64,000 bases of DNA from assembly GCA_038087875.1 (NCBI GenBank), contig CM075994.1, positions 186,001 through 250,000 of the forward strand, read 5' to 3'. Shown piece by piece: positions 5,809 to 59,502 of this stretch; position 1 is the first letter of the stretch; each line of letters begins with the position of its first letter. The stretch comes from Malacoraja senta (Eukaryota). Under the pieces are notes generated by a model that had not been told where the DNA came from, searched no databases, and was given only the letters and a program-made list of their open reading frames with translations. Position numbers and translations under genes: made by a program.

Positions 5809-5826
5809 GGAGGCCATGCCTGGGGC

Positions 5827-32389: not shown

Positions 32390-32483
32390 ATGTCCGAGCG
32401 CCGTACACCGCGACGAAGGACTCGCAGGGAAAATGATTTCTTCAGCATTTTCATCCTCGTCGCCACTTGGGCTTGTCTCTCGG
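32390..32483 (+). CDS. Exon 1 (start codon and signal peptide) of an uncharacterised single-V-domain Ig-superfamily receptor
   Basis: ATG at 32390 with an in-frame TGA upstream (32339). Translates MSERRTPRRRTRRENDFFSIFILVATWACLS (basic N-region plus hydrophobic core) and ends at a perfect donor G|GTAAGT in phase 1, matching the phase-1 acceptor of the Ig exon. CpG-rich unique sequence. Confidence 0.8.
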
Positions 32484-34889
32484 GTAAGTGGGTGAGATTG
32501 TTTTATTTTCCTTTGTTGTGATGCGAGTTCCCTCCACATCGGAATCCTCCACAGTGTATAAAATCACGAGAGGAACAGATCGGGGAATAGGGGAATCGAG
32601 GAACAGGGGACAGAGATTTAAGGTGACGGGGAAAAGATTTAATAGGAATCTGAGGGGTAACGTTTTCACACAAAGGGTGGTAGGTGAATGGAACAATCTG
32701 CCAGAGGAGGTAGCTGAGGCTGGGGCTATATCCAACGTTTAAGAAACAGTTAGACAGGAACATGGATAGGACAGGTTTGGAGGGACTAGTGCAGCTGGGG
32801 CAAGTTGGCCATGTGGGCAAGTTGGGCTGAAGTGCCTGTTTCCACACTGTTGTTAGATTGTTACTGCACAAAGGGATTACCAACAGGTCGGGTTTGTGTT
32901 ATGGGGAACGTCTGGTGGAGATTAATTCAAGATTAATTGTTTATTAATTCAAGTCTGCAGTAAATTCTAAAATTATCCCGGTTGGCGTGGACTCGGTTGG
33001 CCGAAGGGCCTGTTTCCAAGTTGTATCACTCTGTGACTCCATGCTTCTCTGGATTTTGCCTGACCCGCTGAGTCACTCCGGCACTTTGTGTTTCGAACAA
33101 GATTATATATAATAGTGGTCTTTCCTCGGCCCACCTGTGCAACCCTGCGAGGCGCTGCTTTTAGTCTGTTAGTGTAGCTGGGCAATGCTGGACGGTGTGG
33201 GCAAGTTGGGCTGAAGGGGCTGTTTTTTTTCCTGGTTTTGGGGGAATCCAAATCCAGGGGTCGCAGTTTAAGAATAAGGGGTAGACCATTTAGGACTGAG
33301 ATAAGGAAAAACATTTTCACCAAGAGAGTTGTGAATCTGTGGAATTCTCTTCCCCAGAAGGCAGCAGAAGCCAATTCACTGGATGTTTTCAAGTGAGAGT
33401 TTAGATAGAGCTCTTAGGGCTAACGGAGTCAGGGATATGGGGAGAAACCAGGAACGGGATATTGATTTTGGATGATCAGCCGTGATCATATTGAATGGCG
33501 GTGCTGGCTCGAAGGGTCGAATGGCCTGCTCCTGCACCTATTTTCTATGTTTCTATGTTTCTATCTTTCTACAGACAGGATGGTGGCCCTGCCAGGGGTG
33601 GTGGTGGACACAGATACGATAGTGGTGTCTTGGAGTCTTTTAGATAGACACATGGATATGCTGGGAATAGGGGGATATTTAACATGTGCAGACAGAGATT
33701 AGTTAAGATCGGCATTGCGTTGTTCATGAACATTGTGGGCCGAAGGGTTCAATAGTTCAACGGTCTTTATATCTCACTTAAGCTCACAAGTGATAGGAAC
33801 AGAATTAGACCTTTTGGCCCACCAAGTCTACTCCACCATTCAATCATGGCTGATCTATGTCTCCCTCTCAACCCCATTCCCCTGCTTTCTCTCCAGAACT
33901 CCAGACACTCGAGGTACAGTCAAATTCATTTTTGTGTACAGTACAGTACAAGTATCACTATACATAAGCACGTAGATACATCTTAAATCAGCATCTCAGC
34001 TACAGTACAAGTGTATCAGTAGTACAGTGAGACAGTGTACAGAGTCACCAGTTTGGCATCATTTTCAAGTCCCAGTTATTGTGAGTGCAGTGATCTTGAC
34101 CTGATCATGAAGGTCTGTTGTCCTGGCGGCATTGCAGGGTCGGCCTGGCCAAGCACAGGGTGGTGTGGTCCATCGCTGCTCCACCGCTGAGGCTGCGTCC
34201 GATCCACGTGCTCGGCCTCTTGGAGCGGCGCCCGGTCCAGCCGAGCCCCAGGTTGCTGCAGGGCCTCCAGCGGCCCACTCCCACGTCGAGTTCGTGCTCC
34301 CCCACCCGCAGCCGATCTGCTCACCGGCCCTCTGTCCCACTTCCTCCATTCTGGGCAGGAGCTTCTTCGCTGTCGTGTGCTGGGCAGCAGAGCGAAGGCC
34401 GCGGACCCCAACAGAATCAACAAAATCATCAAGAAGGCTGGCTCCATCCTGGGGACAGAATTGGGTTTATGGGAGGTGATCTAGAGGAGAACTGCGGAGC
34501 ATCTTGGACAATACAGCGCACCCCTCCATGACACACTGGTCAACCTGAGGAGCACCTTCAGCAACAGACTGGTCCCACTAAGATGCAGGACAGAATGCCA
34601 CAGGAGATCCTTTTCCCCTGTGGCTATCAAATTGTACAAATCCTATCTCTTCTGTTGTGGGGTAGGCTGACTCTCCTCCCCAATCTTTGCACATCTCCAA
34701 TCCTTACCACTTGTCACTTTCATTTCATGGTCCATGTATTTTGTGTTTTATAACTATTTGCAGATCAATTTACCTCCTGGGATAAATAAAGCTCTATCGT
34801 ATCGTTTCATTCCCGGTTCGCGGCGCGGATCCTCGGTCCATGGCGGGCGGGTCGATGGGACTGTTCCTGCGCTGCACTGTTTTTTGGGG

Positions 34890-36645
34890 TTTTTTAAAAA
34901 TATTTTTATTAGAAGTCATACACAATAGTATAAATCAAGAATAATATAATACATTTCATGTACAACTTCTTGTTTTTAAATTTAATAATAAAAAAGTAAT
35001 AGAAGCAAAAAGAGAGTAAAAGAAAGTTCGATAAGGTGGTGAAAGTAATAGATTTTGAAAGAGTGCAGTAAAAAGAGAAAGGCAAAAAAACAAAATTTAA
35101 AAATTAGAAAGAAGATAAAATGGATATAGCTGCTTCATATCTTTGCGCACCCCTCACCCGGTTCTGAAACAGTTAATTTCCAGGGTTATGTTGCACCATA
35201 AGCTTGTAATAAATCGATAAAGGGAGACCAAATCTTTAAGAATTGGTCTGATTTGCCTGTTAGGACAAATCTCATGTCTTCTAGATGTAACATTTCAGAC
35301 ATATTTGAGATCCACATTTTAAGCGTTGGTGTTGGTGCATTTTTCCAGAATTTTAATATGTTTTTTGCCGTTATTAAGCCATAATTAAGGAAACTCTTTT
35401 GGACCGAAGTCAGCTCAGGGCCGACCTCCGTTGTTCCAAAGATAATCAGTTCTGCGTTGACGTTCAGTTTTATTTTAAATACTCTTGTAAAAATTTCAAA
35501 GATTTCCTTCCAAAGTTTCTGAAGTTTTATGCAAAAGACAAAAGAATGTCTGCATCTTGAGATGAGCATTTGTCGCAGATGGGAGACACATTTGGAATTT
35601 TTTATTCAATTTAGTTTTCGAGTAATATAATCTGTGTAAAATTTTGAATTGAATTAAGGTGTGTCTTACATTAATCGAACATTTGTGTACATGTAGCAAA
35701 TATTTATCCCATCTGTCTTTCGAGATTTTTATAGATAATTCTTGTTCCCAATCTCTTCTAATTGCATCAGACGGTGGTATCTCTATGTTTAAAATGTTAA
35801 TATACAAATATGATATTAAATGAGTTGAGTCCGCCTTTCTGTTCATAGCTTCATCTAATATATCTGAAGTCGAAGTTTTATGTTCTTGTGTATGTTTTTT
35901 CAAGTAGTCACGGATTTGAAGGTATTTAAAGTATTGATTACTTTTCAGGTTGTATTTAAGTAGTTGTTGGAATGTTAAAAGGTTTCCCATTTCACACATA
36001 TCTCCAAACATGTTAATTCCTTTTCTTTCCCAGTGTGTAAACATTTTGTCGATAATAGATGGTTTAAACGATGGATTATTAACAATGGGAGAGAGAAGCG
36101 ATAGGTTTCTTAATTTGAAAGTTAATTTTATTTGTTTCCAAGTTTGTATTGTGCTATGAATAATTGGATTTTTCTTGTATATTATGTTATTCAATTTTAT
36201 CGGTGAAAGAAGGATCGCTCCTATATTAAAAGGAGAGCAAGCCTCTCTCTCCATTACTATCCAATCTAACTGTTGGGCAGAATTGTCCAACAAGTAAATT
36301 ACATATTTGATATCCGTTGCCCAGTGATAGTACAAAAAATTGGGTAGTGTCAGTCCTCCGAATTCTTTGGATTTACACAGGTGTCTTCTTTGAATTCTGT
36401 GGGATTTATAGTCCCATATGAAATTAGTGATATCAGAGCCGAGTTAAAAAAAAAAGATTTTCGGTAAATATTTTGGTATTGATTGAAATAAATATAAGAT
36501 TTGTGGCAAAAAAATCATTTTTATGGCATTTATTCTGCCTATTAAAGACATCGGTAGTGTTTTCCAAAATTTAATCAAAGCATTTAATTTAGTAAGTAAG
36601 GGCATATAGTTAGCATTGAATAAAGCTTTATATATTCTGGTAATT
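34890..36645 (-). mobile_element. L1/Tx1-clade LINE ORF2 3' portion
   Basis: SLIGRINAIKMIFLPQILYLFQSIP, YYHWA and QFKILHRLYYSK; frameshifted. Confidence 0.9.
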
Positions 36646-37476
36646 TCTGCGCTGCACTTATATGAGAAAAACGCCAAGTGCTGGTGAAACTCAGATGGTC
36701 AGTCGGCATCTGTGGAGAGAATGGACAGACGACGTTTCATGTCAAGACTGTTCTTCAGGCTGATACTGCCAGACCCACAGAATTCCTCCAGCACTTTGCT
36801 TGTTTGATTCAGTTTCCAGCACCTGCAATTGTCTCCTCTACTGTTCTGTTTTATGCTACAAAATACTAACTGCTGAAAGAAACGCCATTTCCCTCCACAG
36901 ATCTGCCCCAACCACTCAGTTCCTCCCGCACTTTATTTTTTTGCTCCAGATTCCAGCACCTGCTGTTTCTCGTGCCCCCTGTACCGTTCCATGTTTTACG
37001 TGTGGGAAGGAACTGCAGATAGACACAAAAGCTGGAGTAACTCAGCGGGACAGGCAGCAACTCAGGAGAGAAGGAATGCGTGACATTTTGGGTCGAGACC
37101 CTTCTTCAGACAGGAACTGCAGATGCTGGTTTACACTGATTGTGCTTGAATTCACTGGAATTTAGAAGGATGAGAGGATATTTAATGGAAACAAAAAATC
37201 CTTAAGGGATTGGACAGGCTAGATGCAGGAAATATGTTCCCGAAGTTGGGGATGTCAACATCACCATCTATATCTCTCATTTCCCTTATCCCTAACCAGT
37301 CTGAAGAAGGGTCTCGACACGAAATGTCACCCATTCCAGCATTTTGCACTGTACAACACCTAACAGTACTGATGAAAGAAGGCCTGTTCCCCTGTCATCC
37401 TGGCCCATGTTATCCTTCCCTCCCTGTTATCCGTCCCTCCCTGATACCCCCCCCCTCCCCGTTTAACCATCGAGGT

Positions 37477-37781
37477 GGCATGGTGGTACAACGGTAGAGT
37501 TGCTGCCTCACAGAGCTAGCGACCTGGGTTTGAACCTGACTACGGGTGCTGTCTGTACGGTGTTTATGCATTCTCCTTACAACCATGTGGGTTTTCTCTG
37601 GGTGCTCCGGTTTCCTCCCACATTCCAAAGACGTACAGGTTTGTAGGATAATTGGCTTCTGTAAATGGTAAATGGTCGCCAGTGTGTAGGATAGAGCTAA
37701 TGTACGGGGATCTCAGGTCGGCGATTACTCGATGGGCTGAAGGGCCTGTTTCTGCATTGAATCTCTAAACTAAACTAAACT
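37477..37781 (+). mobile_element. HE1-like V-SINE (further copies at ~11615, 16950, 43205, 46830, 50243, 50705, 55140, 56650, 63648)
   Basis: Full-length head, V-core and tail organisation ending ctctaaactaaactaaac. Confidence 0.85.
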
Positions 37782-38129
37782 CTTCATGTCACTGAAACAA
37801 ATGGTTGAATCACACCGGCTTTCTCCTTGTAGGAACCTCATCTGTGCAAAGTGGCTGCTTTACTCTTTACGTGTGTACAAGTCATGGTACGTGACAAGTG
37901 TATTGAGAAAGCAGTTAATAAGGTACATGCAATCATGAGTTTTATTCATAGAACGCTAGAGGTTAGAAGCAGAGAAGTCACACTGAACTATTTGTGAAAC
38001 ACTGGTTCAACCTCAAACTAGAGTGATATATTCAATTCTCGTCGACCATTTTAGAAAGGGTGTGAACGCGATAGAGAGGACCCAGAAACATTTACAGATA
38101 CAGGATGGATAAGAAAGGTTTAGATAATT

Positions 38130-38920
38130 TTACATAGATTATATTATTCAAAAGCTAAATTAAGTAAATTTTACCCAAATACCTCTGCTAACTGTGATAA
38201 ATGCCTAGTCCAAGAATCAACCATGGCACATTCTTTTGTTTTTTGTATAAAAATTCAAAAATTTTGGAATTACATTTTTGAGATTTTCACTAAATTATTT
38301 AAAATAAAACTGAAACCGAATGCAGAACTGATTATTTTTGGAACAATAGAAGCAAGTTTGGAGCTGACTGCGTTTCAAAGGAGTTTTCTTAGTTATGGCT
38401 TAATAATGGCAAAAAAATTGATACTGAAATTTTGGAAAAATGCTCCTACGCCAACAATAAAAATGTGGACTTCTAATATGTCGGAATTGTTACATCTAGA
38501 AGATATGAGATTCCTCCTAGCAGGTAAACAAGACCAATTCCAAAAGATTTGGTCTCCATATATCGACTTATTACAAACATAGGGTGCAACAAAATGATGA
38601 TAATAAATGGTTTTAGGACCTGGCGAGGGGTGAGTAAAGATAAGAAGTAGGTACATCCCTTTCATATTGTCCTACCTTATTTTCTTTTTTCTCTTTTTTT
38701 CTTTTCTTCTTTAACTACTTCTTGTGGTTTAGGTTCACATGTGTGTTCCTGGACCACTTTCTCACTCACTCACTGTGTCTTTGCTAGCTCTTTCTATCCT
38801 TTTTTTCTATTAAAGTTGAAAAACAGAAGTGGTACAAGAACTGTATAAATTTACGTTATTGCAGATTACTGTAATGTAAAATACTTCTAATAAAAAAATT
38901 AAAAAAAATTAAAAAAAAGA
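38130..38920 (+). mobile_element. L1/Tx1-clade LINE 3' end
   Basis: CDKC...MAHSFVFC...AKKLILKFWK, 3'UTR and poly-A tail. Confidence 0.88.
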
Positions 38921-40177
38921 AAGGTTTAGAGGGATATGGGACAGGTATGTAAGACTAGTGTAGATGGGGCATTTTGGTCGGCAAGGGTAGGTTTGGCTGA
39001 GGGGCCAGTTTCCATCCTGCATGACTCTATGACAGTACAGCATGGAAACAGGCCCTTCAGCCCACCAAGTCCACGCAGCCCATTGATCACCAATGCACAC
39101 TAGTTCCGTGTTATTCATAGAAACATAGTAGGTGCAGGAGCAGGCCATTTGGCCCTTCGAGCCAGTACCGCCATTCAATATGATCACTGCAGATCATGCA
39201 GAATCAGTATCCTGTTCCTGCCATATCCCATAACCCTTGATTCCGTCAGTCCTAAGAGCTATATCTCTTGAAAACATCCACTTGTCATCCACTCCCTACA
39301 AATTAGTAGCAATGTACAGAGACCAAATAACCTACAAGCCCACATGAGATAATATCTACCTCATTGGAGACCCTCGAACTATCTTTGATCAGACTTTACT
39401 GGACTTTATCTTGCACTAAATGTATTTCCTTTATCATGTATCTGTACGCTATGGCTGGCTTGATTGTAACCATGTATTGTCTTTCCACTGACTGGTCAGC
39501 ACGCAACAAAAGCTTTTCATTGTACCTCGGTATACTGCCAATAAACTATACTAACACTTGGAGAATATGAAAGAGAATGAGAGAAAGGTTATGAAGAGGG
39601 ATTAGAGGGGCTGGGCAGCTTTTATTGTGCAAGAGATGTTGATTTGATGATAAATATATAAAATAATGAAAGGTCTAGATGTAGGAGGCTGTTTTCTTCA
39701 AGGAGAGATCGAGGATTGGAAGTCATGGGTGTGAAATAACACGAGGTGAAACTTGCAGGAAAGGACTGCAGATACCGGTCTGCACCGAAGACAGACACAA
39801 AATACTGCAGTAACTCAACGGGACAGGCAGAATCTCTGGATATAATTTTTTTGTTTAATAAAGCACAAAGTTGAGATCTGGAACGCACTGTTGTCTGGGG
39901 TTGTGGGGATATGTTCCATTGTGGTTGCTAGGAGGGAAGTGGAGAAACACGGCAAGAAAAATAATTACAAAACTCTAGAGAATGCTGTGTGGAACCAGCG
40001 AGTTATTCTGTAAAGATCCAGCACGAAATGGAAGGCTGAATGGTCTTCTGTGCTACTCTCACTCTACATTCGATTATTGGGCAACTCATTTCAGTTCGTA
40101 TTGTTGTGAACTGTAGGTACACAAAAATGCTGCAGAAACTCAGCGGGTGCAGCAGCATCTATGGAGCGAAGGAGAGA

Positions 40178-40212
40178 GGCAACGTTTCGGGCCGAAACCC
40201 TTCTTCAGACTG
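40178..40212 (-). ncRNA. Minimal type I hammerhead ribozyme motif in a Penelope-derived repeat (representative copy)
   Basis: Minus strand cagt-CUGAAGA-a-GGGU-uucg-GCCC-GAAAC-GUU-gcc: conserved core, stem II with a UUCG loop, palindromic ACGU stem III and an NUH triplet. Activity untested. Confidence 0.65.
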
Positions 40213-40649
40213 ATAGGGGGTAGGGGGAGGCGGGGAGAAGAAAGGAAAAACGAGGAGGAGGAGCCCGAGGGCTGAGGGAGAGGTAGGAAGGGGAGAAGAC
40301 AGCAAGGGTTAACGGAATTGTGAGAATTCAATGTTCATGCCACCAGGATGCAGACTCCCCAAGCGGAATACGAGGTCCTGTTCCTCCACTTTGTTGTGAA
40401 CTGTACTATTTTCTTCCAATTTTCTTAAACTGCAAGATTTTTTTCAACTTAAAATTTATCAACCAGTTGGTGCATTGCCTCTTCAATGGTTCTATTGTGC
40501 TTTATTGTCACATGTGCAAATTGCACAGTGAAATTCATCTGTAATACAGTTCAATAAAGTATGGCCATACCACAGCACAATCCCCCGATTAGCAAAGTGT
40601 ACAGTAGTTCGCTGAGCCGGTGTTATCTTTGAAGTGTGGTCTCGTTTGG

Positions 40650-40693
<44 letters not shown>

Positions 40694-40865
40694 ACTCGCC
40701 CTCTCCCCCTCTCCCTCTTCGCTGCAACTCTCTCTCTCTCCCTCCCCCCCCCCTCGCCCTCTCAAGACCACCATTGGCTCTGAACTACATAGACTCTGTT
40801 ATTATTGCACTATTATAGTTTGTTTTTGTGTGTACGTATATTATATATATATATATAATATATAA
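40650..40865. repeat. (CT)n and (TA)n microsatellites
   Basis: Direct reading. Confidence 0.9.
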
Positions 40866-41407
40866 TGGCATGTTGCCTTTATCATCGTTACGTTTTTGCA
40901 TACCGTTCATTCATTGTCTTTTATCTATCCACACCACCGTCTATATAATGGAACAAGCCATTCTTAGTTGTTTGTAAGGTGAAAACGAGAAGCCTGTGCG
41001 ACTTGGGTGGGGGAGGGATGAAGAGAGAGGGAATGCCGGAGCTACCTGAAGTGAGAGAAATCAATATTCATACCATTGTAAACTGCCCAAGCGAAATATG
41101 AGATGCCGTTCAAAGATCTGATGCCGTTCCTCCAATTTGCGTTTCGCCTCACTCTGTAAAATCTAATCCCCACTGGCGCCTGCCTTAAACAAAGCCGAAG
41201 TCTATCCCCGTGGGCCGAAGAAGGCCAGTGTGTCCCAGCCCTTTTGTGTATCGGTTCTGCTGTTCAAAAGCACTGTGATCCGAAGAGCGCCTTCGCGACC
41301 ACGGGGAACATTTCACAGCCGGTAACGCGCCAGTAGGGAGCCGGTTATATTGAGTTAAAGCCTATTCCCAGAGTGTGTTTGTTGTTGTAGCGGGTATTCA
41401 CACTCTA

Positions 41408-41920
41408 GCCTTCCCCCCGCACTTTCCCCTCTCTCACCGCTCCCCGTACCCCACTCCCCTCCCCCCCCAACTGTACACTCTACCTCCCGCTAATCCTACT
41501 CTCACCCTCTCACTCCCTCCTCACCCTCTCATCTCCCCCACCCTCCCCACTCCCTCCTGTCCCACCCCGGCCCCTTTCTAACACCCTCCACTCCCCGTTC
41601 TCACACCCTCTCCCCCACATCCTGCCCACACCCTCTCCCCATCCACTCACTCCCTCCTACCCCCCTTTCTCCTCACCTCCCACTCCCTTCACCCTCCTTC
41701 CGCTCCTAGTTTATTTTCTCCCCACCCCATCCTTCACCCCCTTCCTCTTCCCCCACCAACCCGCCCACTCCCACTCCCCCCTTCCCTTCTCCCTTCACTC
41801 GCCCCTTCCCTTCTCCCCTTGCCCCTTTCCCCGCTTCCCCCCTACCCCTCTCTCCTACCCACTCATCCTCCCTGCCACTCCCTGCCACTCCCACTCCCAC
41901 TCCAATCCCCTCCCACACAT
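41408..41920. repeat. C-rich low-complexity tract upstream of the Ig exon
   Basis: Runs of ccc separated by t/a; G-quadruplex-prone on the minus strand. Confidence 0.85.
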
Positions 41921-42097
41921 TCACCGCAGCCTGGGTCAGTATCGCGTTGTTGAGTCGCCGGCAGCTCCCCCCCCCTCCCCCCCCCTGCTCCACCTCCTCA
42001 CATGCTGCCTGACCTCACGGTCATACGGGCCCGCGGAGACGGTCGTGTCCCGGGATTGTAACTGAGACCCGTTGATCCTTTACCTGTTGTGTTGCAG

Positions 42098-42529
42098 CCT
42101 CGGGAAGCAGCGTCGCCGTGGGCGTCCGTGAGAGAGAAGTGAACGGGACCGTCGGCCGCTCGGCCCTTCTCGCCAGCTGCTACTCCACACCCGACCCCTG
42201 CTCTCAGCTAACATTAGAGTGGCGTTTAGACAACAGCACAACTCCCATTGTGAGACTGAGACGATCAAACTGCTCTTCGCTTGTGAGAATGAGACGATCA
42301 GACTGCCCTCTACACCCTGACCGACCCGGTTGTAACTGTTCAGTTCGCTGGACGACCAGTCCTTCCCACACGGGCCGAGTCCAACTCTACCCCGAGAATG
42401 GGTCCCTGTTACTGTGGGATTTACGGCGCAGGGATAGCGGAGTGTACGAGATATCGGTTTACAGCGGCGGAAACAGCGCTGTTAAAGACAACGTGACATT
42501 AACGGTCCACAATTACCACACTGGGACAG
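42098..42529 (+). CDS. Exon 2, V-set Ig domain (HEPACAM/CD2-SLAM/CEACAM/VSTM5-like)
   Basis: Acceptor cctgttgtgttgcag|, donor ACAG|gtagat, phase 1-1, 432 nt open. Encodes (A)SGSSVAVGVREREVNGTVGRSALLASCYS...LEWRL...GRVQLYPENGSLLLWDLRRRDSGVYEISVYS...NVTLTVHNYHTGT, with V-set hallmarks (C-strand W, ENGSL.L.DL...DSG.Y, VTLTV). Six N-glycosylation sequons. Confidence 0.92.
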
Positions 42530-42533
42530 GTAG

Positions 42534-43087
42534 ATTCAGATTCAGATTCAGATTCAACTTTATTGTCATTGTGCAGTGTACAGTACAGAGACAACGAAAT
42601 GCAGTTAGCATCTCCCTAGAAGAGCGACATAAATATGAGCAATAAATAAATAAATCTAATAAATCTTAGTGGGAGGAGTGGGGGGGGGGGGGTGATTGGC
42701 AGTCACCGAGGTACAGTGTTGAGTAGTGTAACCGCCGCAGGGCAGAAGCTGTCCCAGGACCTGCTGGTCCGGCAACGGAGAGACCTGTAGCGCCTCCCGG
42801 ATGGGAGGAGGGTAAACAGTCTGTGGTTGGGGTGAGAGCAGTCTTTGGCGATGCTGAGCGCCCTTCGCAGACAACGCTTGCTTTGGACAGACTCAATGGT
42901 GGGGAGTGAGGAACCGGTGATGCGTTGGGCAATTTTCACCACCCTCTGCAGTGCTTTCCGGTCGGAGACAGAGCAGTTGCCATACCATACTGTGATGCAG
43001 TTGGTAAGGATGCTCTCGATGGTGCAGCGGCAGAAGTTCACCAGAATCTGAGGAGACAGATGGACCTTCTTTAGTCTCCTCAGGAAG
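42534..43087 (-). mobile_element. 5'-truncated Rex1/Babar LINE inserted at the Ig-exon donor site
   Basis: FLRRLKK...IESILTNCITVWYG...LLPSGRRYRS...; (GAATCT)n tail; AGGTAG at both junctions. Confidence 0.88.
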
Positions 43088-45044: not shown

Positions 45045-46440
45045 TTGTTATTAAATTGTCAGTGCAAAAAAGCAGCAGAATCAGGTGGAGAGTGTTTAGC
45101 AGCCTCACAGCCTGTGGAAGGAAGCTGTTTAGCAGTCTGGTTGTCGGGGCTTTGATGCTACGGTATCTCTTGCCTGATGGCAGGAGATCCAGGTGTGTGT
45201 GGAGGGGGTGCAGTCTGTCCTTTGCTATGCTCAGTGCTTTTTTCAGGCAGCGGCTCTGGAACAGTTCTTGTACCGAGGGTAGGGAGACGCCATGATCCTC
45301 TCTGCTCCCCTCACTACCCTCTGCAGAGCCTTCCTGTCTGAGCAGTTGCACTTGGAGTACCACATGTTAATGCAGTACGTGAGTACAGACTCCACCGTGC
45401 CCCTGTAAAAAGTCCTGAGGATGTTGGTGGGGAGTGAGGCCTGTTTGAGTTTCCTCAGGTAGTGCAGTCGCTGATGGGCCCGTTTGACAATCCCAGTGTT
45501 GTTCCTGGACCAGGTGAGACTGTCTGTGATTTGCACTCCGAGGAACTTTATGTTCTCCACTCTCTCCACCGTGGGGCCACTGATGTTGAGGGGTGTGTGT
45601 TTGGGCTGCGACCTCCTGAAGTCGACAATCATCTCCTTGGTTTTGTCGACGTTCAATTCTAAGTTGTTGTTGCCGCACCAGTCCACTAGTTGTTTCACTT
45701 CCTCCCTGTACATTGTTTCATCCTCTACACTGATGAGTCCCACCACTGTGGTATCATCTGCGAATTTAATAATCCTGTTGTCCCTGAATCTGGCAGCACA
45801 GTCATGTGTGAGCAGTGTGAACAACAGCGGGCTGAGCACACAGCCTTGAGGGGAGCCAGTGCTCAGCGTGATCGAGCCTGAGGTGTTCTTGCCAACAAGG
45901 ACTGACTGCGGTCTCTGTGTCAGAAAGTCCAGGATCCAGTGACACAGGGTGGTGTTGAGGCCCAGCAGGGTTAGTTTCTCCACAAGTCTCTGTGGGATGA
46001 TGGTATTAAAAGCTGAGCTGAAGTCAATGTACAGGATTCTGGCGTAGGTGTTTTTGTTTTCCAGATGCGTGAGTACTGTGTGCAGCGTAGTAGAGATGGC
46101 ATCTTCTGTAGAACAGTTGGGGCGATAGGCGAACTGGAGGGGGTCTAACGATGAGGGGAGGCTGGCAGTAATGTGAGGTTTAACCAGGCGTTCAAAGCAC
46201 TTCATTACTATGGGGGTCAGGGCGACAGGGCGGTAATCCTTTAGGCAGGCAACAACTGATTTCTTTGCTATTGGGATTATTGTGGAAGTTTTGAGGCATG
46301 TGGGGACAATGGCTTGACAACGGGAGATGTTGAAGATGTCTGTTAGCACATCTGCTACCTCATCAGCACATTCCTTGAGCACACGTCCTGGGATGTTGTC
46401 GGGTCCGACTGCTTTCCACGGGTTGACCTTTGACTGGATA
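45045..46440 (-). mobile_element. Rex1/Babar LINE with a largely intact RT domain
   Basis: 402-aa [62 protein letters not shown]. Confidence 0.93.
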
Positions 46441-47292
46441 GCAGGTAACAAACAAGTACCTCCGTACGCATAGCAGTAATAAACTAAATTAAACTAGCCA
46501 ACCATAATAGTGCAAAAGCCGAATACCATCTGATACGATATGATTGAACTTGATAGTAGGGAGATTGATCTGCCAACAGTCATAAAAACACAAAATACAT
46601 GAAACATGAGATTAAAGTGACGAGTGAAAAGGATTGGGGATGTGTAAAGATTGGGAAGGGGAGGGAAGGGAATCAGTCTCAGTCTACCCCATGACAGAGG
46701 GGGGGGGGGGGGGGGAGTTGTACAGTTGAATCCGTAATGGAAACAAAGACCTGGTCCATGGGAGATCACATATGCTGTGGGTAGTGTTGTGCAGTGCTCA
46801 AGAGCCTGGTGGCTGTTGGGAAGAATCTGTTTAGTTTAGTTTAGAGATACAGTGTGAAACAGGCCCTTCGGCCCATCGGTTCCACACCGACCAGCGATCC
46901 CCGCATATTAACACAATCCTACACATTTTTACATTTACTAAGCCAATTTACCTGCAAACCTGTACGTCTTTTGAGTGTGGGAGGAAACCGGAGATCTCGG
47001 AGGAAACCGAAGATCTCGGAGAAAACCCACATGGGTCACGGGGAGAACGTACAAACTCCGTACAGACAGCACCCGTAGTCGGGATCGAAGCCGGGTCTCC
47101 GCGCTGCAAGCGCTGTAAGGCAGCAACAGTGCCACCGTGCCGCTGTTCTTGAAGCTGGTGGTCACAGTTCTCAAGCTGCGGGATGGGAGCGTGGCCAGGG
47201 TGGCGTGGGTCTTTGGTGATATTGGCTGCCTCATTGAGGCAGTGGTCCCTTCCGGTCTAGTTCATTGCAATAACCCGACTGTTTTATTCCAG

Positions 47293-47433
47293 AAAGTGTG
47301 ACCTCCACTTCCGCGACTCCAACAGGATCTGGGCGGAACAGACTGATGGATATAGCTATACCCGCGTCCCTTTTCCTTATCCTTATCCTAATCATCATTG
47401 GCTTGTCCATTCTCCTGACCAAAGCCCTCCGGG
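47293..47433 (+). CDS. Exon 3, Ser/Thr stalk and transmembrane helix
   Basis: Acceptor gttttattccag|, donor G|gtaagt, phase 1-1. Encodes (E)SVTSTSATPTGSGRNRLMDIAIPASLFLILILIIIGLSILLTKALR, a ~23-aa uncharged hydrophobic stretch followed by basic residues. Confidence 0.9.
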
Positions 47434-47742
47434 GTAAGTGACCCTTCCTGACTCAGTGAATGGCAGTCAGCATCTAGTGGTAGGTCACAAGTTTATTGAG
47501 GTCATGGCCTCACATACTGAGAGAGAAGGGCAGGTTGCACCAGGACTGTGCAGGAAGGAACTGCAGATGCCAGTTTAGACTGAAGATAGACACAAAAAGT
47601 GGGAGTAACTCAGTGGGTCAGGCAGCATCTCTGGAGAAAAGGAATAGTAGTTGTTTCGGGTCGAGACCCTTCTTCAGACAGAGAGTCTGGTGCAAAGAAT
47701 TTCTTTTCAATGGTGTTTAAATTCAAAGTCGTGTAAAGCTTA

Positions 47743-48185
47743 CCAGATCTCCCGGTTGCTAAACACTTTAATTCCCCTTCAAATTCCCACGATGCCCTTT
47801 CTGTCTTAGACCTCCTCCGCTGTCAGATTGAGGCTAAATACAAATTAGAGGAACAGCATCTCATATTCCGCATGTGCAGCTCATACCCCAGTGGTATGAA
47901 TGTTGATTTATCTGTCTTCAAGTAACCCTGGCATTCCCTCTCTCTCCACCCAAGTCGCACCAGCTTTTCATTCTCACCTCGCTACACCTTACAATTACCT
48001 ATTTTCTTTATCTTGTTACATTATTTTTATGCATATTTTTCATTAATTTGTTCTATATCTCTAACATCATTGTCTGTATCTCTCCTGTGCCTTTCCTGTG
48101 ACTTTCAGTCTGAAGAAGGGTCTCGACCCAAAACATTACCTATTCCCTTTCTCCAGAGATGCTGAGTTACTCCAGCTTTTTGTAT
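47743..48185 (+). mobile_element. Penelope-like element 3' fragment with terminal repeat
   Basis: PDLPVAKHFNSPS...KLEEQHLIFR...PSGMNVD (GIY-YIG C-terminal part), then a 3'UTR, then the ctgaagaagggtctcgacccaaaac terminal motif. Confidence 0.8.
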
Positions 48186-48742
48186 ACATCCAAAGCATAA
48201 ACAAGTTTTGTTGAAAGGAAAGACGCAACAGACAGGGAAAACTCAGCATAAATTCCAAAGCAAAATATCCTGGCTGCTAAATGCTTCCACATCTCATCTC
48301 TCATCGCCCCCCTAACACCAGGTGGCCGCAATGCTTTTCATTTTAGTTTAGTTTTGCGATACAGCATGGAAACAGGCCCTTCGGCCAAGAGCGTCCATGT
48401 CGACCATTGCTCACCTCTTCATATTAGATTGACATAAAAAGCTGGAGTATCTCAGCGGACCAGGCAGCATCTCTGGAGAGAAGCAATAGATGACATTTCG
48501 CGTTGAGACCCTCGAAACGTTGCCTATTCCTTTTCTTCAGAGATGCTGCCTGACCCGCTAATCTATTCCAGCATTTTGTGATTATCTTCGGTGTAAACCA
48601 GCATCTGCAGATGTTCTTCGGGGATCTGTAGGAAGGAACTGCAGATGCTGGTTTACACCGAAGATAGACACAAAAGGCCGGAGTAACTCAACGGGTCAGA
48701 TAGCATCTCTGGAGAAAAAGAATAGGTGACGTTTCGAGTCGA

Positions 48743-48777
48743 CATCTGAAGAAGGGGCTCGACCCGAAACGTCACCT
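48743..48777 (+). ncRNA. Minimal hammerhead ribozyme motif (second representative copy)
   Basis: CTGAAGA-aggggctcgaccc-GAAAC-GTC-acc, embedded in a palindromic Penelope-terminus repeat. Confidence 0.55.
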
Positions 48778-51096
48778 TTTCCTTTTCTCCAGAGATGGTA
48801 TCTGACCCACTGAGTTACTCCAGCTTTTTTTGTGTCCATGTTCTCCAGGGATGTTACCTGACCCACTGAGTTACATCAGAACTTTGTGTTTCTCAAATAT
48901 TGTTTATAATAGTGGATACATGGGAGTGATTTATAGACGGGAATCAAACTTAGGGGTAAAAGCAAGGAAATGCAGATGCAGCCTAACCCGCAGAGTTACT
49001 CCACTTTTTTGTGTCTGTCTGTGGTTTAAACCAGCATCTGCAGTTCCTCCCGAAACCTGTTGACACTCACTCTATGTTATCCTATTTTCCATCCACTCTC
49101 CATACGCTAGGGACAATTGACAGAAGCCAATTAACATAAAACCTGCACGTGTTTGGGAAGGAAACCCATGCAGTCAAACGACAATAGACAATAGGTGCAG
49201 GAGTAGGCCATTCAGCCCTTCAGGCCAGCACCGCTATCCAACGTGATCATGGCTGATCATCTCCAATCAATACCCCGTTCCTGCCTTCTCCCCATATCCC
49301 CTGACCGCTATTTTAAAGAGCCCTAACTAGCACTCTCTTGAATGCATCCAGAGAACCGGCCTCCACCGCCCTCTGAGGCAGAGAATTCCACAGACTCACA
49401 ACTCTCTGCGTGAAAAAGTGTTTCCTCATCTCCGTTCTAAATGGCTTACCCCTTATTCTTAAACTGGTAGCCCCTGGTTCTGGACTCCCCCAACATCGGG
49501 AACATGTTTTCTGCCTCTAGCGTGTCCAAACCCTTAATAATCTTATATGTTTCAATAAGATATCCTCTCATCCTTCTAAACTCCAGAGTATACAAGCCCA
49601 GCCACTCCATTCTCTCAGCATATGATAGTCCCGCCATCCCGGGCATTAAGTCACAGGGAGAACATGCAAATTCCATGAATACAGCACCCGTAGTCAGGAT
49701 CGAACCTGGATCTGTGGAGCTGTGAGGCAGCAACTTTACCAGCTGTGCCACTGTGCCTCCGCCCCCTCCTTCCTTGAACAGAAGCCAAACAGCCCCCTCC
49801 CCTCCACCATCCTTCCCCTTCCTAAATGAACTTGTGCTCATTTAAACAACTTGTCCTTTAACTCCATTCACTGCCTCCACATGAACGGTGTCACTATGGG
49901 ACCAACGTGCTCACAGAGAGGATGTGTGGAACTTTGAAGCAAGGAACTGCAGATGCTGGTTAATACACAAAAGGACACAAAGTGCTGGAGCAACTCAGTA
50001 GCTCAGGCGGTGTCTCTGGAGAACATGGATAGGGCGTTTTGGGTCGAGACTGAAGTCTGACGAAGGGTCTTGACCCGACATGTCATCTGAACAGTCTGAA
50101 TAAGGATCGTAACCCAAAATGTCACCTGTCTATATTCGCCAGAGATGCTGCCTGACCTGCTGAGTTACTCCAGCACTTTGTGTGAAATGTTGCTTCTTTC
50201 AAACCCACAAATAAAAGCCCTGATATTTGATGACTATACTGCTTAGTTTAGCTTAGAGATAAGCTCTTCGGGCCACCGAGCCCGCTTCAACCAGCAATCA
50301 CCACACACTAACACTATCCTTCACACACAAGGAGCAATTTTATAATTTTACCAAACCAATTTGCCTATAAATCTACTCATCTTTGGAGTGTAGGAAGAAA
50401 CCGAAGATCTCGGAGAAAACCCATGCAGGTGACGGGGAGAAAGTACAAACTCCTTACAGACAGCATCTGTAGTCAAGATCGGACCTGCGTGTCTGGTGCT
50501 GTGAGGCAGCAACTCTACCGCTGCATCACCATGCCACATCTGGAGAATTTCACCACGTTTTGGCTGCCAATTGCCACATGGCTCACACTTTAAATTTATC
50601 CATCTCTGGCCCCTTCATTTCTCTATCCGCCCCTGGGACTAAATTAGTGACCAATATCCTCCATAAACCTAGAATAAACTCTATATGCGCAACATATTAA
50701 TCCAGTTTAATTAGAGATCCAGCACGGAAACAGGCCCTTCGGCCCACCGTGTCCACATTGATCAGCGATCCCCACGTTCCTACTATCCTACACACACTAG
50801 GGACAATTTACATTTATACCAAGCCTATTAACCTACAAGCCTGTCCATCTTTGGAGTGTGGGAGGAAACCAAAGATCAAGGAGAAACCCCATGCAGGTCA
50901 TGAGGCAAACGTACAAATTCCGTACAGACAATACCCGCAGTCAGGATCGAACCCAGGTCTCTGGCGCTGTAGGGCAGCAGCTCTACTGCTGCACCACCGT
51001 GCTGCCCTGCTTCCATCATTTAATGGCTACAAATTGGTAAGACTCTGGATAATGCATAATTAGAAATTCTGTTGCTATCTCATTATTTTATGTCAG

Positions 51097-51176
51097 ATTA
51101 TTATCGAAGGAGTAAGTCGGACGCCACGGAAGGATTTGTTGCGTTTAACAGAGTTTCACGGCAAGACTTGAACAAG
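51097..51176 (+). CDS. Exon 4, membrane-proximal cytoplasmic segment
   Basis: Acceptor cattattttatgtcag|, donor AAG|gtaagt, phase 1-0, 80 nt. Encodes (D)YYRRSKSDATEGFVAFNRVSRQDLNK in unique sequence. Confidence 0.82.
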
Positions 51177-53014
51177 GTAAGTGGGCAGTGGGTTAGAGGG
51201 AGAAATCATTCGCAAACTAAAATCTGCTGCATCAATTGTGTCAAATAACCCCTCTTCCTTGGCCCAAAATGTTAGCATCTGGAAGGCAAAGGTAGTGAGT
51301 GCGATTCTGGTTGTATACATTTGAGCTGCTGGAGGGTCTGAAGAAGGGTCTCGACCCGCAACATAGTCACCTCTTCCTTTTCTCCAGAGATGCTGCCTGA
51401 CCCGCTGAGTTACTCCAGCATTTGGTGCCGAAGCTGCAGGAACTCAGCGTGTCAGGCAGTATCAGGAGAAGGAAATGGACAGCCGACATTTCGGGTTGGG
51501 ACCTTTCCTCTGGACTAAAAGGGTGGGGAGGGGAAAACCAGGAGGGAGTGGGGGGGGGGGGGGGGGAGGAAAGAGGTGGCACCTGGTCAATGAATCCAGG
51601 TTGAGAAGGGCAAGGATTGCTGGATGTAGTTAAACTAAGTTAAAGAGGGATGGTGATAGCAACGGTGGCTGGGATGTGAATGATGGAGGTGACCAGGGGT
51701 TGCAGATGATGGGATCAGATGGGAAGGGATGGTGGTGTCTGGGACCAAAGAAGGGAAATGTGCCGGAAGGCACTGCAGATGCTGGTTTAAACCGAAGATA
51801 GACACAAAACGCTGGAGTAACTAAGAGGGACAGGCAGCATCTCTGGATAGAAGGAATGGGGGTCTGAAGAAGGGTCTCATCCCAAATCACCCATTCCTCT
51901 CACCAAAGGAGAGAAATTGAGTGGGCAGATGGCAATGAGGAGAGGGGCGGGGTAGAACCTGATGGGAGGAGAGTGTGGGTAATGGGAAGATGAGATGGTT
52001 GAGGAAGAAACTGCTTAATTCATTTAGTCAGGGTGGTGAATCTGTGGATCTCATTGCCACAGACGATGTGGAGGCCAAGTCATTGGGTATTTTTAAAGAA
52101 GCGATCGACAGATACGTGATTAGTAAGTGTGTCAAGGGTTATGGACGAGGGGGGACCTCATTGAAACTTACCAAAATAGTGAAAGGCCTGGATAGAGTGG
52201 ATGTGGAGAGGATGTTTCCACTCATGCGAGAGTCTAGGACCAGAGGTCACACCCTCAGAATAAAAGGACTTTCCTTGAGGAAGGAGATGAGGAGGAAGTT
52301 CTTTAGTCAGAGGGTGATGAATCTGTGGAATTCATTGCCACAGAAGGCTGTGGAGGTAAGTTAGGCAGAGATAGATAGAGTGGGTGTCATGGGTTATGGG
52401 GAGAAGGCAGGAGAATTGGGTTGAGAGGGTAAAATAGATCAACCATGATTGAACAGCGGAGTAGACGTGATGGGCTGAATGGCCTTATTCTGCTCCTATG
52501 ATATATTAACATGAGTGGGGGGGGTAAAGTTGTGGGAAAGAAGAGTATGTGTGGATGATAGGGTCGATAGAGGAACAGAGGTGCTTCACAGGATGGGGAG
52601 TGGTCTGTTCTGTTTTAGAGCAGAGGGATCTACGAGTGCAGGTACAAAGTTCCCTGAAAGTGGCCTCACAACTCAATAAGACAATAGACAATAGGTGCAG
52701 GAGCAGGCCATTTGGCCCTTCGAGCCAGCACCGCCATTCAATGTGATCATGGGTGATAATCCACAATCAGTACCCCATTCCTGCCTTCTCCCCATATCCC
52801 CTGACTCCGCTATTTTTAAGAGCCCCATCTAGCTCTCTCTTGAAAGCATCCAGAGAACCTGCCTCCACCGCCCTCGTGAGGCAGAGAATTCCACAGACGA
52901 TCAACAAGGATTTTGGCACATTGGCTTTCATCAGTCAGAGTACTGTGTATAAAAGTTGGAAGATAGACACAAAAAGCTGGAGTAACTCAGCGGGACAGGC
53001 AGCATCCTGTCGGT

Positions 53015-53578
53015 ATGTCAAGGAGGACTCTCTCGTACTTCTACAGGTGCATAGTAGAGAGCATGCTGACCGGTTGCATCGTGGCTCGGTTCGGCAACTT
53101 GAGCGCCCAGGAGCGTAAATGACTGCAAAAAGTTGTAAACACTGCCCAGTCCATCATCGGCTCTGACCTCCCTTCCATCGAGGGGATCTATTGCAGTTGT
53201 TGCCTCAAAAAGGCTTCCAGCATCATCAAAGACCCATATCATCCGGGCCACTCACTCATCTCCCCGCTACCTTCAGGTAGTAGGTACAGGAGCCTGAAAT
53301 CTGCAACATCCAGGTCCAGGAATAGCTACTTCCCCACAGCCATCAGGCTATTAAACTCAACTCTAACAAAACTCTGATTTTTAAATAGCCCATTGCACTT
53401 GATCTGTTTATTTATGTGTGTGTATATATATATTCATTGGTATATGGTCACAATGATCTGTTCTGTTCTGTATTTATTTATGCCTACTATATTCTGTTGT
53501 GTTGAAGCAAAGCAAGAATTTCATTGGCCTATATGGGACACATGACAATAAACTCTCTTGAATGTTGAATCTTGAATC
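53015..53578 (+). mobile_element. Rex1/Babar LINE 3' fragment (others at ~17930-18200 -, 34375-34805 +, 57070-57735 -)
   Basis: ESMLTGCIVARFGN..., SGSRYRSL, 3' gacaataaa and (ttgaatc)n tail. Confidence 0.8.
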
Positions 53579-55779
53579 TCTGGAGACTCTTCTTCAGACG
53601 GTTGACTTATAGCCAATACCCACTGATTCAGGCTGGTTCTGGTAAACCTCTTCTGCGCCCTCTCCAAAGCCTCCACATTCTTTCTGTAAGGGGGCGACCA
53701 GAACTGCACGCAATACTCCAAATGTAGATGAACCAATGTCCAATAAAACTGCATTATGCAAATCTGCACTACCCAACTCTTATATGTAATGGCTCGTGCA
53801 ACGCAGGCAAGCGTACCATACCCTCCTTTACTAATTTGTCTACCTGTGTTGCCATTTTCAGAGACCTGTCGAGCTGTGAGTTACTGAGATGCAGCATTTC
53901 ACAGGAATAAATTTCTACCACCCATTCCTTCTCTCCAGAGATGCTGCCTGTCCCGCTGAGTTACTCCAGCTTTTTGTGTCTATCTTTAGTTTAAACCAGC
54001 ATCTGCAGTTCCTTCCTACACATAGAAGTTGAAAGGTTATGTTACAGCATTACAAGACATTGCTGAGGACACATTTGGAGTGTTGTGTTCAGTTTTGGTC
54101 AACCTGTTATTGGGGTTGATCCCCACCAGGGGGCGCCGCACGATTGCTGCCTCACCAAAGGTCTGTCTCGTCTTTTTCCTTCTTTGTGGTTTTAGTTTGT
54201 TGTAAAATGTTTGTTTTAGTTTATCTTTAGTTTTGTATTATGTGGGGGGGGGGGGGGAGCTTTAAAAAACCTCTTTCCTTGACCGAGATGCGACATTCTC
54301 CGTGTCGTGTCTCCGTCCGCGCTGCGGCCAAACACTGTGGAGCTGTCGGCCTCTTGCTGGGACCTCGGAGCTCAAACCGCGAGAGCCTGCAGACTTAACA
54401 TCGTCAGCTGGCGATCCCCTTGCCAGGGATCGACCTTGGGAGCTCCAACCGCGGGGGCTTGCGGACTTTAACAACGTGCCTCTCGCGGTCCCTGGTTAGG
54501 GATCGACTTTGGGAGCTTCAAGCCACAGGTGCTTCAACCGCCCCGACGCAGGAGTTTTCATCGCTGGCTGCGGGAGCTTCGATCGTCCCCACTGCGGATG
54601 GTTCAACCCCCCCCCCCCCGACCCCGGGAGAAAAGGAGGAAGGAAGATAAGACTTTATTGCCTTCCATCACAGTGGGGAATGTGGTGGAGCCGCTGTGGT
54701 GGATGTTTATATCACATTTTTATGCCGTTGTGTGTCTTGTTGCTTTTTTTGGTATGACTGTATGGCAAACCAAATCCCTCGTATATTGTAAAACATACTT
54801 GGCTAATAAATTACAATTATGATTATGAATAAGCAGAAAAGGGTGCAGAGAAGATTTACGTTGCCAGGACTCATGGGCCTGAGTTATGGGGAGAGGTTGA
54901 GCAGGCTTGGATTGCAGCAGGATAAGAGGTGATGTTATAGAAGTGTATCAGATCATGAAGAGATTCATGAAGAGATAAATGTACAGTCTTTTACCCAGAG
55001 TTGCGATATCAAGAGCCAGAGGACACTTAAAGGTGAGGGGGAAAATTTTAATCTGAACCTGAGGGACAACTTTCACACATAGGGTGGTAGGTATACGGAA
55101 TGAGCTTCCAAAGGAGGTAGATTTAAAAAGCATTTGGATAGTTTAGTTTAGTGTTTTTTTTAGAGATACAGTGCAGAAACAGGCCCTTCAATCCAGTCCA
55201 TACCGAACAGCAATCCCTGCATATTAAAACTACCCTACACACACGACTTAAGGCTAAACCTGTATGCCTTTGCAGTGTGGGAGAAAAATCGAAGATCTTG
55301 GAGAAAACACACATACACACTCCGTATAGACAGCACCCATAGTCAGGATCGAACTCGGGTCTCTGCCGCTGTAAGGCAGCAACTCTACCGCTGCACAACC
55401 GTGCTGCCCCAATGTTACCTCGATAGGATAGGTTTAGAAGGATTGGGGCCAAATGAGGCAGATGGGAAAAGTGTAGATGGGGCATGCTGGTCGGCATGGG
55501 CTAGTTGGGCTGAAGGGACCGTTTTCACACTATGACTCTATGACTCCATGTGCAGGCTGTTGAAGCTAATTTAATTTGGCTTCATGTTCAGCGTAGACAC
55601 TGTGGGCTGAAGAGCCTGTTCCTGTGTTGTACTTTTCCATGTTCTACATTCCAACTTTCCTCTCAAAGTATCTGAAAACTTGGTCTTCCTCCTTTAACCA
55701 CTTGTTGCCCTGCTGCATACTTTCTTGCATCAACTCAAATATTGCATCCCATAAATTGTCCTCTCTCTGTTCTTCACAG

Positions 55780-55914
55780 GCCCCGGAATTAAATTCACGG
55801 GATGAGATTATATACTGCCTTCTCCAGCTTCCTAAGGCCAACAGCCCAGCAACAACAGATGAACAGGACGCAGGCATTGTCTACGCTGTTCCACAGAAAG
55901 TGCAATGCAGGTGA
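55780..55914 (+). CDS. Exon 5, cytoplasmic tail with tyrosine motifs (ITIM IIYCLL; IVYAVP) and stop codon
   Basis: Strong acceptor ctctctctgttcttcacag|, phase 0. Encodes APELNSRDEIIYCLLQLPKANSPATTDEQDAGIVYAVPQKVQCR*. A possible donor CAG|gtgaag just before the TGA means a further exon cannot be excluded. Confidence 0.82.
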   Translation, partial: APELNSRDEIIYCLLQLPKANSPATTDEQDAGIVYAVPQKVQCR

Positions 55915-59501: not shown

Positions 59502-59502
59502 T

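Follow-up and report, generated by a model that had tools for sequence, protein, structure and literature searches.

Little is known of the innate receptors, inhibitory or activating, that cartilaginous fish possess, and families of paired receptors as a rule change too fast to be followed from one class to another. In the LILR/PIR and CHIR families and in other pairs coupled to FcR-gamma, a member bearing an inhibitory motif of the immunoreceptor tyrosine-based type (ITIM) is accompanied by a short-tailed member with an arginine near the outer end of its transmembrane (TM) helix. Members of the CD2/SLAM group possess a disulfide-less V domain and cluster with genes of the V+C2 type, and HEPACAM, HEPACAM2 and VSTM5 are characterized by a disulfide-less V domain and similar framework motifs, joined in the HEPACAMs by C2 domains. 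CEACAM1 and CEACAM3 of mammals and Xenopus combine a disulfide-less N-terminal V domain and an ITIM tail with homogenisation of the V exon across inhibitory and activating genes, opposite gene orientation and variation on the C-C'-C'' side of the domain. The order leader, V domain, stalk, TM and tail with two tyrosines is also that of PD-1, CD28HL3 and TIGIT (PMC11599192), and the elasmobranch genes NCR3 (NKp30) and UrIg are non-rearranging genes of the immunoglobulin (Ig) superfamily on the major histocompatibility complex (MHC) chromosome (PMC10751288). The present analysis concerns a 64,000-nucleotide window of the skate Malacoraja senta genome (assembly GCA_038087875.1, contig CM075994.1, hereafter C18, positions 186001-250000, forward strand), which contains a five-exon gene for a receptor with a single V domain. 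Coordinates without a prefix are window positions.

The gene is probably an inhibitory member of an ancient and apparently undescribed family of paired Ig-type immune receptors, and its product is a predicted type I membrane protein. The LILR/PIR and CHIR receptors differ from it in their C2-type domains with disulfides, and no sequence relationship to them appeared in any search. In contrast to PD-1, CD28HL3 and TIGIT, the skate family lacks the canonical disulfide between strands B and F, is multigenic and is paired. NCR3 and UrIg are of the VJ type (UrIg2 with the canonical disulfide, PMC12227049) and, as far as the accessible tables go, occupy other loci under other locus numbers.

Gene model and protein layout

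Splicing of the five exons in silico produced an 882-nt coding sequence of 293 aa with a single terminal stop. All four introns are of the GT-AG type with phases 1,1,1,0, the donor sites fit 7-9 of 9 consensus positions, and the acceptors are 71-88% pyrimidine. The exon coordinates, intron phases and length of the coding sequence given in a first-pass annotation, made from the sequence alone, were thus reproduced in every value. The exons and the features within them are as follows:

32390..32483, plus strand: exon 1, 94 nt, with the ATG and a predicted leader (basic n-region, hydrophobic core), ending in a phase-1 donor
42098..42529, plus strand: exon 2, 432 nt, V-set Ig domain with six N-glycosylation sequons and six cysteines
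42250..42315, plus strand: 11 codons duplicated in tandem within the C'-C'' region, with one extra cysteine as a result, seen in alignments
42271..42339, plus strand: cysteine pair, C58 or its duplicate C69 with C80 (exon-peptide numbering), on the long C' and C'' strands (49-60 and 78-86 in the AlphaFold model)
47293..47433, plus strand: exon 3, 141 nt, Ser/Thr stalk and uncharged transmembrane helix (about 47352-47420)
51097..51176, plus strand: exon 4, 80 nt, first cytoplasmic exon with a basic stop-transfer, phase 1 to 0
55780..55914, plus strand: exon 5, 135 nt, tail exon with two tyrosine motifs and the stop codon
55807..55824, plus strand: ITIM IIYCLL (Y261), fitting (I/L/V/S)xYxx(L/V)
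55876..55893, plus strand: second tyrosine motif IVYAVP (Y284), tyrosine conserved, neither an ITIM nor a switch motif

The gene model is confirmed as real and beyond chance, and it is homology that secures it. The Rhinoraja model P0004 matches all five exons in the same order with 65-83% identity (38/44 in exon 5), and two paralogous loci retain all five exons with identical splice sites. In exon 1, 29 of 31 residues are identical to model P0002, and three paralogous leader exons are 97% identical. The skate gene is co-linear with models that NCBI predicted automatically for further skates and for rays and sharks; the earlier description of the gene as hidden therefore applies here only. The exons had also been presented as islands of unique sequence, which is correct within the window. 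However, half of the window is self-repeated and the five exons are among 57 unrepeated islands, so that uniqueness within the window says little, and genome-wide the exons are not unique: exons 1, 3, 4 and 5 have four matches each and the V exon has 15. Searching with the V exon matched 14 of 104 candidates, all named 'uncharacterized', namely 10 elasmobranch proteins (46-84% identity) and four proteins from two birds (37-38%). A full leader-V-TM-tail protein resembling the chicken one, P0064, is encoded in a 1.6-kb Logan contig, which implies, indirectly, spliced RNA in the lineage of P0064. Several public models were found to be faulty (P0017, P0016, P0024 and P0002): a reverse-transcriptase N-terminus is fused to the Amblyraja gene, exons derived from long interspersed nuclear elements (LINEs) occur in Mobula isoforms, and there is intron read-through.

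The predicted layout consists of a leader, one V-set domain, a Ser/Thr stalk, an uncharged TM helix (residues 196-218, 19-residue hydropathy 2.9) and a 75-aa tail. This order, proposed in the first-pass annotation, agrees with the hydropathy, with a Pfam V-set match that is weak (E 3.6e-5, 24.3 bits, under the 26-bit cut-off) and with an AlphaFold model in the form of a V-type sandwich (mean pLDDT, the model's confidence score, 84.7). The fold neighbours are generic V-set domains only, with at most 26% identity: VCBP3 (Z 15.7), MPZ (14.0) and PD-L1, the V domains of PD-L1 and TIGIT being found at 14-19% identity. In exon 2 the canonical B-F disulfide is missing, serine and isoleucine standing at those positions. 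Among the 258 family domains, the F-strand cysteine is absent from all 248 and the B-strand cysteine from all 203 in which the respective motif was located. Membership in the PD-1/CD28, NCR3 or CD300/TREM/MDIR families, of which this disulfide is a defining feature, was rejected for its absence from the family. Another cysteine pair, between strands C' and C'', is invariant in 15 of 15 aligned sequences, and at least two cysteines occur in the C'-C'' segment of 189 of 240 family V domains, which suggests an extended hairpin joined by a putative disulfide. The 11-codon duplication was seen in skate sequences only; two of the six paralogous V exons lack it, and in the AlphaFold model it corresponds to a low-confidence loop (63-73). 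No C2 exon was found among the 58 other intragenic plus-strand open reading frames (ORFs) of at least 65 aa, none of which matched an Ig family, and the V-set domain is the only one common to 12 family members checked. The proposal of an uncharacterised ITIM receptor with a single V domain and no C2 domain is in line with these results.

The cytoplasmic motif IIYCLL had been read as an ITIM, and it fits the definition (I/L/V/S)xYxx(L/V) given in PMC2832619. It matches the ITIM of the Amblyraja model P0017, and an xxYxxL/I motif is present at this site in 15 of 15 elasmobranch long-tail relatives. The second motif, IVYAVP, follows at the distance reported earlier, 23 residues from Y261 to Y284, and its tyrosine is conserved: 14 of 15 elasmobranch relatives have one 22-27 residues after the ITIM, followed at Y+3 by proline or a small residue. 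Because of the proline at Y+3, it is neither an ITIM nor a switch motif of the immunoreceptor tyrosine-based type (ITSM). The switch motif TxYxxV/I is absent from the tail of the window gene and is frequent in tetrapod relatives, which often carry two motifs. In Rhinoraja and Mobula models (P0004, P0005, P0100) a duplicated tail exon provides two ITIMs and four tyrosines.

Partner genes, relatives and chromosomal location

The receptor had been proposed as possibly chondrichthyan; neither a restriction to cartilaginous fish nor a solitary gene is supported. The skate genome contains two further complete ITIM loci, paralog B (C18:516-545 kb, minus strand) and a copy on contig C3360 that could be an allele, along with a copy on C5129 whose TM exon is frameshifted and whose acceptor is damaged. 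The exons of the window gene differ by 2.5-8% from those of paralog B and therefore belong to a distinct locus. Head-to-head with paralog B, 47 kb apart, lies a gene of another type (C18:591.9-609.2 kb), with a leader at 591.9 kb, V exons at 598.7, 602.2 and 605.8 kb and a TM exon at 609.1 kb. It has its own distinct leader and TM exon, an arginine within the TM helix and a stop right after it, and its phases are compatible; the Leucoraja counterpart P0003 retains the short tail, without an ITIM. The V exons of this Arg-type gene, two intact and one frameshifted, are 85-94% identical to the V exon of the window. The latter is nearer to the first of them (94.6%, proportion of synonymous differences, pS, 0.047) than to that of the ITIM paralog B (92.2%, pS 0.101). 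No blastn match of at least 250 nt linked the leader or TM exons of one type to those of the other, and the similarity between ITIM and Arg types is confined to the V exon, short flanks and repeats.

Profile searches returned 95 and 70 hits among 8000 scored word-sharing candidates each, and a further search gave 1175 representatives, 150 of them listed and 30 looked up by name. Relatives were found in elasmobranchs (sharks and rays) and chimaera, in gar, tarpon, coelacanth and lungfish, among amphibians in frogs, newts and caecilian, and also in turtles, a skink, alligators, many birds and, at three loci (LOC114812814, LOC114812908 and LOC103171087), platypus. They are named 'uncharacterized' or 'hypothetical' or bear automatic HEPACAM-, CEACAM-, A33- or CD276-like labels; the earlier statement that no named one-to-one ortholog exists was borne out among these hits. 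No marsupial or placental member occurred among the named hits of these word-limited searches, in which most representatives are nameless, and a loss in therians is suggested. The profiles of the shark and tetrapod groups score best against one another (medians of 128 and 109 bits), as compared with 90-103 bits for other subfamilies and 26-29 bits for unrelated Ig proteins, and skate and bird queries lead to the same top Atlas cluster. A total of 193 proteins contained a full V domain; 53 without a TM were dropped and the other 140 classified by regular expression. Among these, 68 combine an uncharged TM with an ITIM or ITSM, 43 have a basic TM without motif, seven have both and 22 neither, in a set that counts isoforms and close orthologs as separate rows, which are thus not independent, and whose pattern matching is crude. 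The last class includes birds with short tails and a TM containing glutamine or histidine. The V domains of the bird short-tail paralogs P0026, P0060, P0067, P0069 and P0070 are near-identical to that of the adjacent ITIM gene; their Cys-rich TM, with conserved glutamine and histidine replacing arginine, may belong to a decoy or use a different adaptor.

The anatomy of a paired receptor is present in skate and catshark, where linked paralogs combine a similar ectodomain with opposite signalling ends; the catshark inhibitory and Arg-TM genes are divergently oriented, 94 kb apart. Both the tree and the exon comparison indicate that the ligand-binding exons are homogenised within species. In a quick tree of V domains only, in which the elasmobranch and tetrapod clades have support of 99 and 84, inhibitory and short-tail genes of the same species cluster together; this holds for catshark, epaulette shark and skate and for four bird pairs (duck, razorbill, stork and ibis). 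V exons thus sort by species and not by signalling type. No description of the family was found in the literature searched, locus ids included, a body of text that mostly excludes subscription papers; some members could appear under CEACAM names in sequence supplements of CEACAM papers.

The supplementary gene tables of PMC10751288, in their accessible parts, list four of the six family locus ids searched; the two missing ids are from Amblyraja, a species that has no sheet. In these tables, the MHC chromosome carries the orthologs of white shark, catshark and sawfish, and for two of the three the distance to NOTCH4 is about 1-2 Mb. The sawfish ortholog (chr34, 9.94 Mb) is inside an Ig-gene cluster flanked by NOTCH4/PBX2 at 8.8-9.0 Mb and CUTA/SYNGAP/ZBTB22 at 10.2-10.7 Mb, with B2M about 3 Mb off. 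The white shark ortholog (94.76 Mb) has NRM on one side and NOTCH4 on the other, and the catshark inhibitory and Arg-TM genes, as divergent neighbours, are 5.5 Mb from NRM on the same chromosome arm. The observation cell is blank for all listed family loci (PMC10751288). An assignment of the shark locus to an X-conserved region was dropped after these tables. On C18 itself, six intronless HSP70 genes (10.10-10.47 Mb, one apparently frameshifted) match an HSP70 cluster on sawfish chr34 and lie 10 Mb from the receptor locus, so that the MHC linkage of this contig is indicated only indirectly. Searches for the markers PGK and DUF4661 gave no match anywhere in the skate genome and are uninformative. 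Composition-ranked ORF scans over about 1.4 Mb of C18 revealed transposons, GPCRs (G protein-coupled receptors) and Ig exons, and no single-copy neighbour was found in them. The 88 MHC class I exon matches of the genome, mostly alpha-2-like, are spread across dozens of short contigs, which points either to class I-like genes expanded on a large scale or to haplotypes that the assembly did not resolve.

Proposed function and rival explanations

The most likely reading, in which we have reasonable confidence, is that phosphorylated Y261 recruits SHP phosphatases and that the receptor is paired with Arg-TM receptors using an adaptor. What lies beyond the anatomy we infer. A ligand would contact the C-C'-C'' face of the V domain, a Src-family kinase would phosphorylate Y261 with Y284 assisting, and SHP-1, SHP-2 or SHP-2L would dock on the phosphorylated tail and damp leukocyte activation. 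LILRA-type receptors are the model for the coupling of an Arg-TM chain to an adaptor of the FcR-gamma/CD3-zeta type. The Arg-TM paralogs may see the same ligand and signal 'on' through such an adaptor, a step to which only the TM arginine points. Exchange of V exons would keep both specificities matched, and a pathogen-driven race would diversify the binding face. The SHP-2 SH2 binding residues are conserved down to sharks (PMC12151841).

Several observations weigh against this interpretation, in addition to the non-independent rows and crude patterns of the protein classification. The skate gene has a single canonical ITIM and no second ITIM or ITSM, and thorough SHP activation usually uses two motifs. 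The skate Arg-type gene may be a pseudogene, with its stop just after the TM and its third V exon frameshifted, and the bird short-tail partners, which lack the TM arginine, could be decoys. The V-only quick tree does not resolve the shark-tetrapod junction. The concentration of variation at residues 30-88 in six paralogous V exons speaks for the proposed reading, with 27 of 59 columns variable (pN/pS, the ratio of nonsynonymous to synonymous differences, 1.42), compared with 13 of 60 (0.51) in the rest outside F-G, but these ratios pool 15 non-independent pairs and rest on small counts. MHC markers were not found on C18, which holds none of the 88 MHC-I, nine SynGAP-family and nine PBX matches. 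The chicken gene is presumably on chicken 4 and the platypus gene on platypus 6, that is, off their MHC chromosomes. Since the chimaera and lungfish relatives are also missing from the accessible MHC tables of PMC10751288, the linkage may be elasmobranch-specific.

Among the alternatives, a divergent CEACAM branch, with a CEACAM1-like inhibitory receptor reduced to the N domain and paired with decoys, is an unlikely account. In its favour, CEACAM N domains are the best PDB sequence matches, both have a disulfide-less V domain with both tyrosines within the last exon, the second Atlas match is the CEACAM19 cluster, and sawfish neighbours were automatically named CEACAM-like. N-exon conversion and opposite orientation of the pair are likewise shared (PMC5112662, PMC2832619, in the accessible parts). 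However, the main PDB match spans only the D-F strands (about 40 residues) in the alignments shown, and the skate family lacks IgC domains and has a long cysteine-bearing C'-C'' insert. The CEACAM1-type tail comprises three cytoplasmic exons and a TEHKxS motif (PMC2832619), whereas the skate gene has two such exons and no TEHKxS. The partners carry a TM arginine and short tails instead of tails with an activation motif of the immunoreceptor tyrosine-based type, or one resembling it. Chicken and duck carry full-length family models, and fowl are reported to be without intact CEACAMs (PMC13278318, PMC3628338, in the parts accessible). The shark neighbours are MHC genes and not LIPE, CNFN, ATP1A3 or PAFAH1B3 in four accessible table parts of PMC10751288. 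An epithelial or glial adhesion molecule of the HEPACAM/VSTM5 type, with the tyrosines serving trafficking or adhesion signalling, appears very improbable. HEPACAM-like is the automatic name of several relatives, the A'-B and E-strand motifs resemble HEPACAM, and YxxL can act as an endocytic signal. Yet the C2 exon expected of a HEPACAM is missing from the 58 ORFs, and neither true gene occurs among the 95 and 70 profile hits from 8000 word-sharing candidates each. HEPACAM, HEPACAM2 and VSTM5, from which the automatic '-like' names derive, are conserved, exist in few copies and lack an ITIM/Arg-TM pair, whereas fast turnover of copies, exchange of V exons and a class of short-tailed members with a basic TM fit immune receptors and not conserved single-copy adhesion genes.

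An offshoot of CD2/SLAM that has lost its C2 domain, with switch motifs for SAP/EAT-2 and the interleaved V+C2 genes as ligands, is the least probable of the rival readings. It would explain the disulfide-less V domain, the TxYxxI/V motif of many tetrapod tails and the V+C2 genes interleaved and co-duplicated with the receptor genes. Salmon 2B4 is the only named-family match in the 70-hit profile search (E 4.6e-8, 16% coverage), and SLAM-like genes are annotated on shark MHC chromosomes (PMC10751288, accessible tables). On the other hand, the skate gene has neither a C2 domain nor an ITSM, and 2B4 and other Ig proteins score at most 49 bits against the family profiles, as compared with 90-128 between subfamilies. 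A basic-TM activating class, present in the skate family, is not a feature of SLAM. Overall, the tested features argue against membership in CEACAM, HEPACAM, SLAM and PD-1, the family being set apart by features and not by a tree. There is also a small chance that, within a real family, the window copy is silent and arose by recent duplication, or is in part a product of misassembly. C18:1-28109 and 235786-263872 form a 28-kb block with 99.0% identity that includes exons 4-5 and is cut by the contig start, itself a recent duplication or an assembly artefact, and broken copies occur within the cluster. The intact frame and splice sites, the divergence from paralog B and the ITIM match with P0017 speak against this reading.

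Our verdict is a real gene of a family that is apparently undescribed and of a known kind. The family can be traced by sequence from sharks to birds and platypus. The logic of pairing an ITIM with a TM arginine is well known, and the family is thus new whereas the mechanism is not. The family stands without a label in the gene tables published for the shark MHC and thus offers one more candidate receptor pair for reconstructing the ancestral MHC, and the full-length chicken model LOC771657 makes expression, signalling and ligand testable in a standard species of immunology and livestock research. Not part of the first-pass annotation were the pairing, the exchange of V exons, the linkage to the MHC in sharks and the pair of C'-C'' cysteines. 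A bolder scheme, to which we give little credence, is an ancient MHC-encoded 'missing-self' pair. Its ITIM member would recognise a self ligand encoded in the same MHC region, either class I or one of the interleaved V+C2 proteins, and its Arg-TM member would catch pathogen mimics of that ligand. Having moved out of the MHC, such a pair would have persisted in chicken and platypus, and it would have been lost in marsupials and placentals.

Other Ig-type genes and repeats on the contig

Further sequences of the same kind are scattered along C18. Intron 2 of paralog B (525-536 kb) contains three tandem 2.7-kb repeats, each with the 3' half of the V exon only. Two orphan tail exons at 683.2 kb and 899.0 kb, in an inverted duplication, resemble sawfish LOC127585951; one retains VLYAEI, the other is without tyrosine, and no V exon was found nearby. 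A second subfamily of the same V type (C18:6878582-6901167) comprises two convergent V exons; the gene on the minus strand includes a leader and a TM exon with an arginine, and for the one on the plus strand no TM was found.

A multi-copy V+C2 Ig gene occurs at about 24, 89, 163, 260, 363 and 441 kb of C18, one copy beginning just right of the window. It combines a V domain that lacks the disulfide with an exon of C2/I type, and three of the copies also possess an uncharged TM exon of 95 nt. These CD2/SLAM- or CEACAM-like genes, interleaved and co-duplicated with the receptor genes, are candidate ligands. A pair of V-like and I/C2 exons lies at 6.806-6.808 Mb, and at 6.983-6.993 Mb there is an Ig gene in which three exons are V-like and one is of the C2 type. 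Additional duplications with 94-98% identity tile C18 from 28 to 340 kb, and a tandem and inverted array at 730-946 kb, in units of about 11 kb, carries class A GPCR exons (7tm_1) and resembles the 'GPR139-like' clusters of sawfish chr34.

Within the window, positions 2500-6900 contain a broken element with frames resembling reverse transcriptase, RNase H and tyrosine recombinase, DIRS-like by eye. LINE fragments, by eye CR1/L2/L1-like, lie at 14835-15716, 22652-23767, 26001-29414, 35189-36443 and 45246-46493. A low-complexity G-rich tract (58600-59620) is located downstream of the first AATAAA signals (58217-58412).

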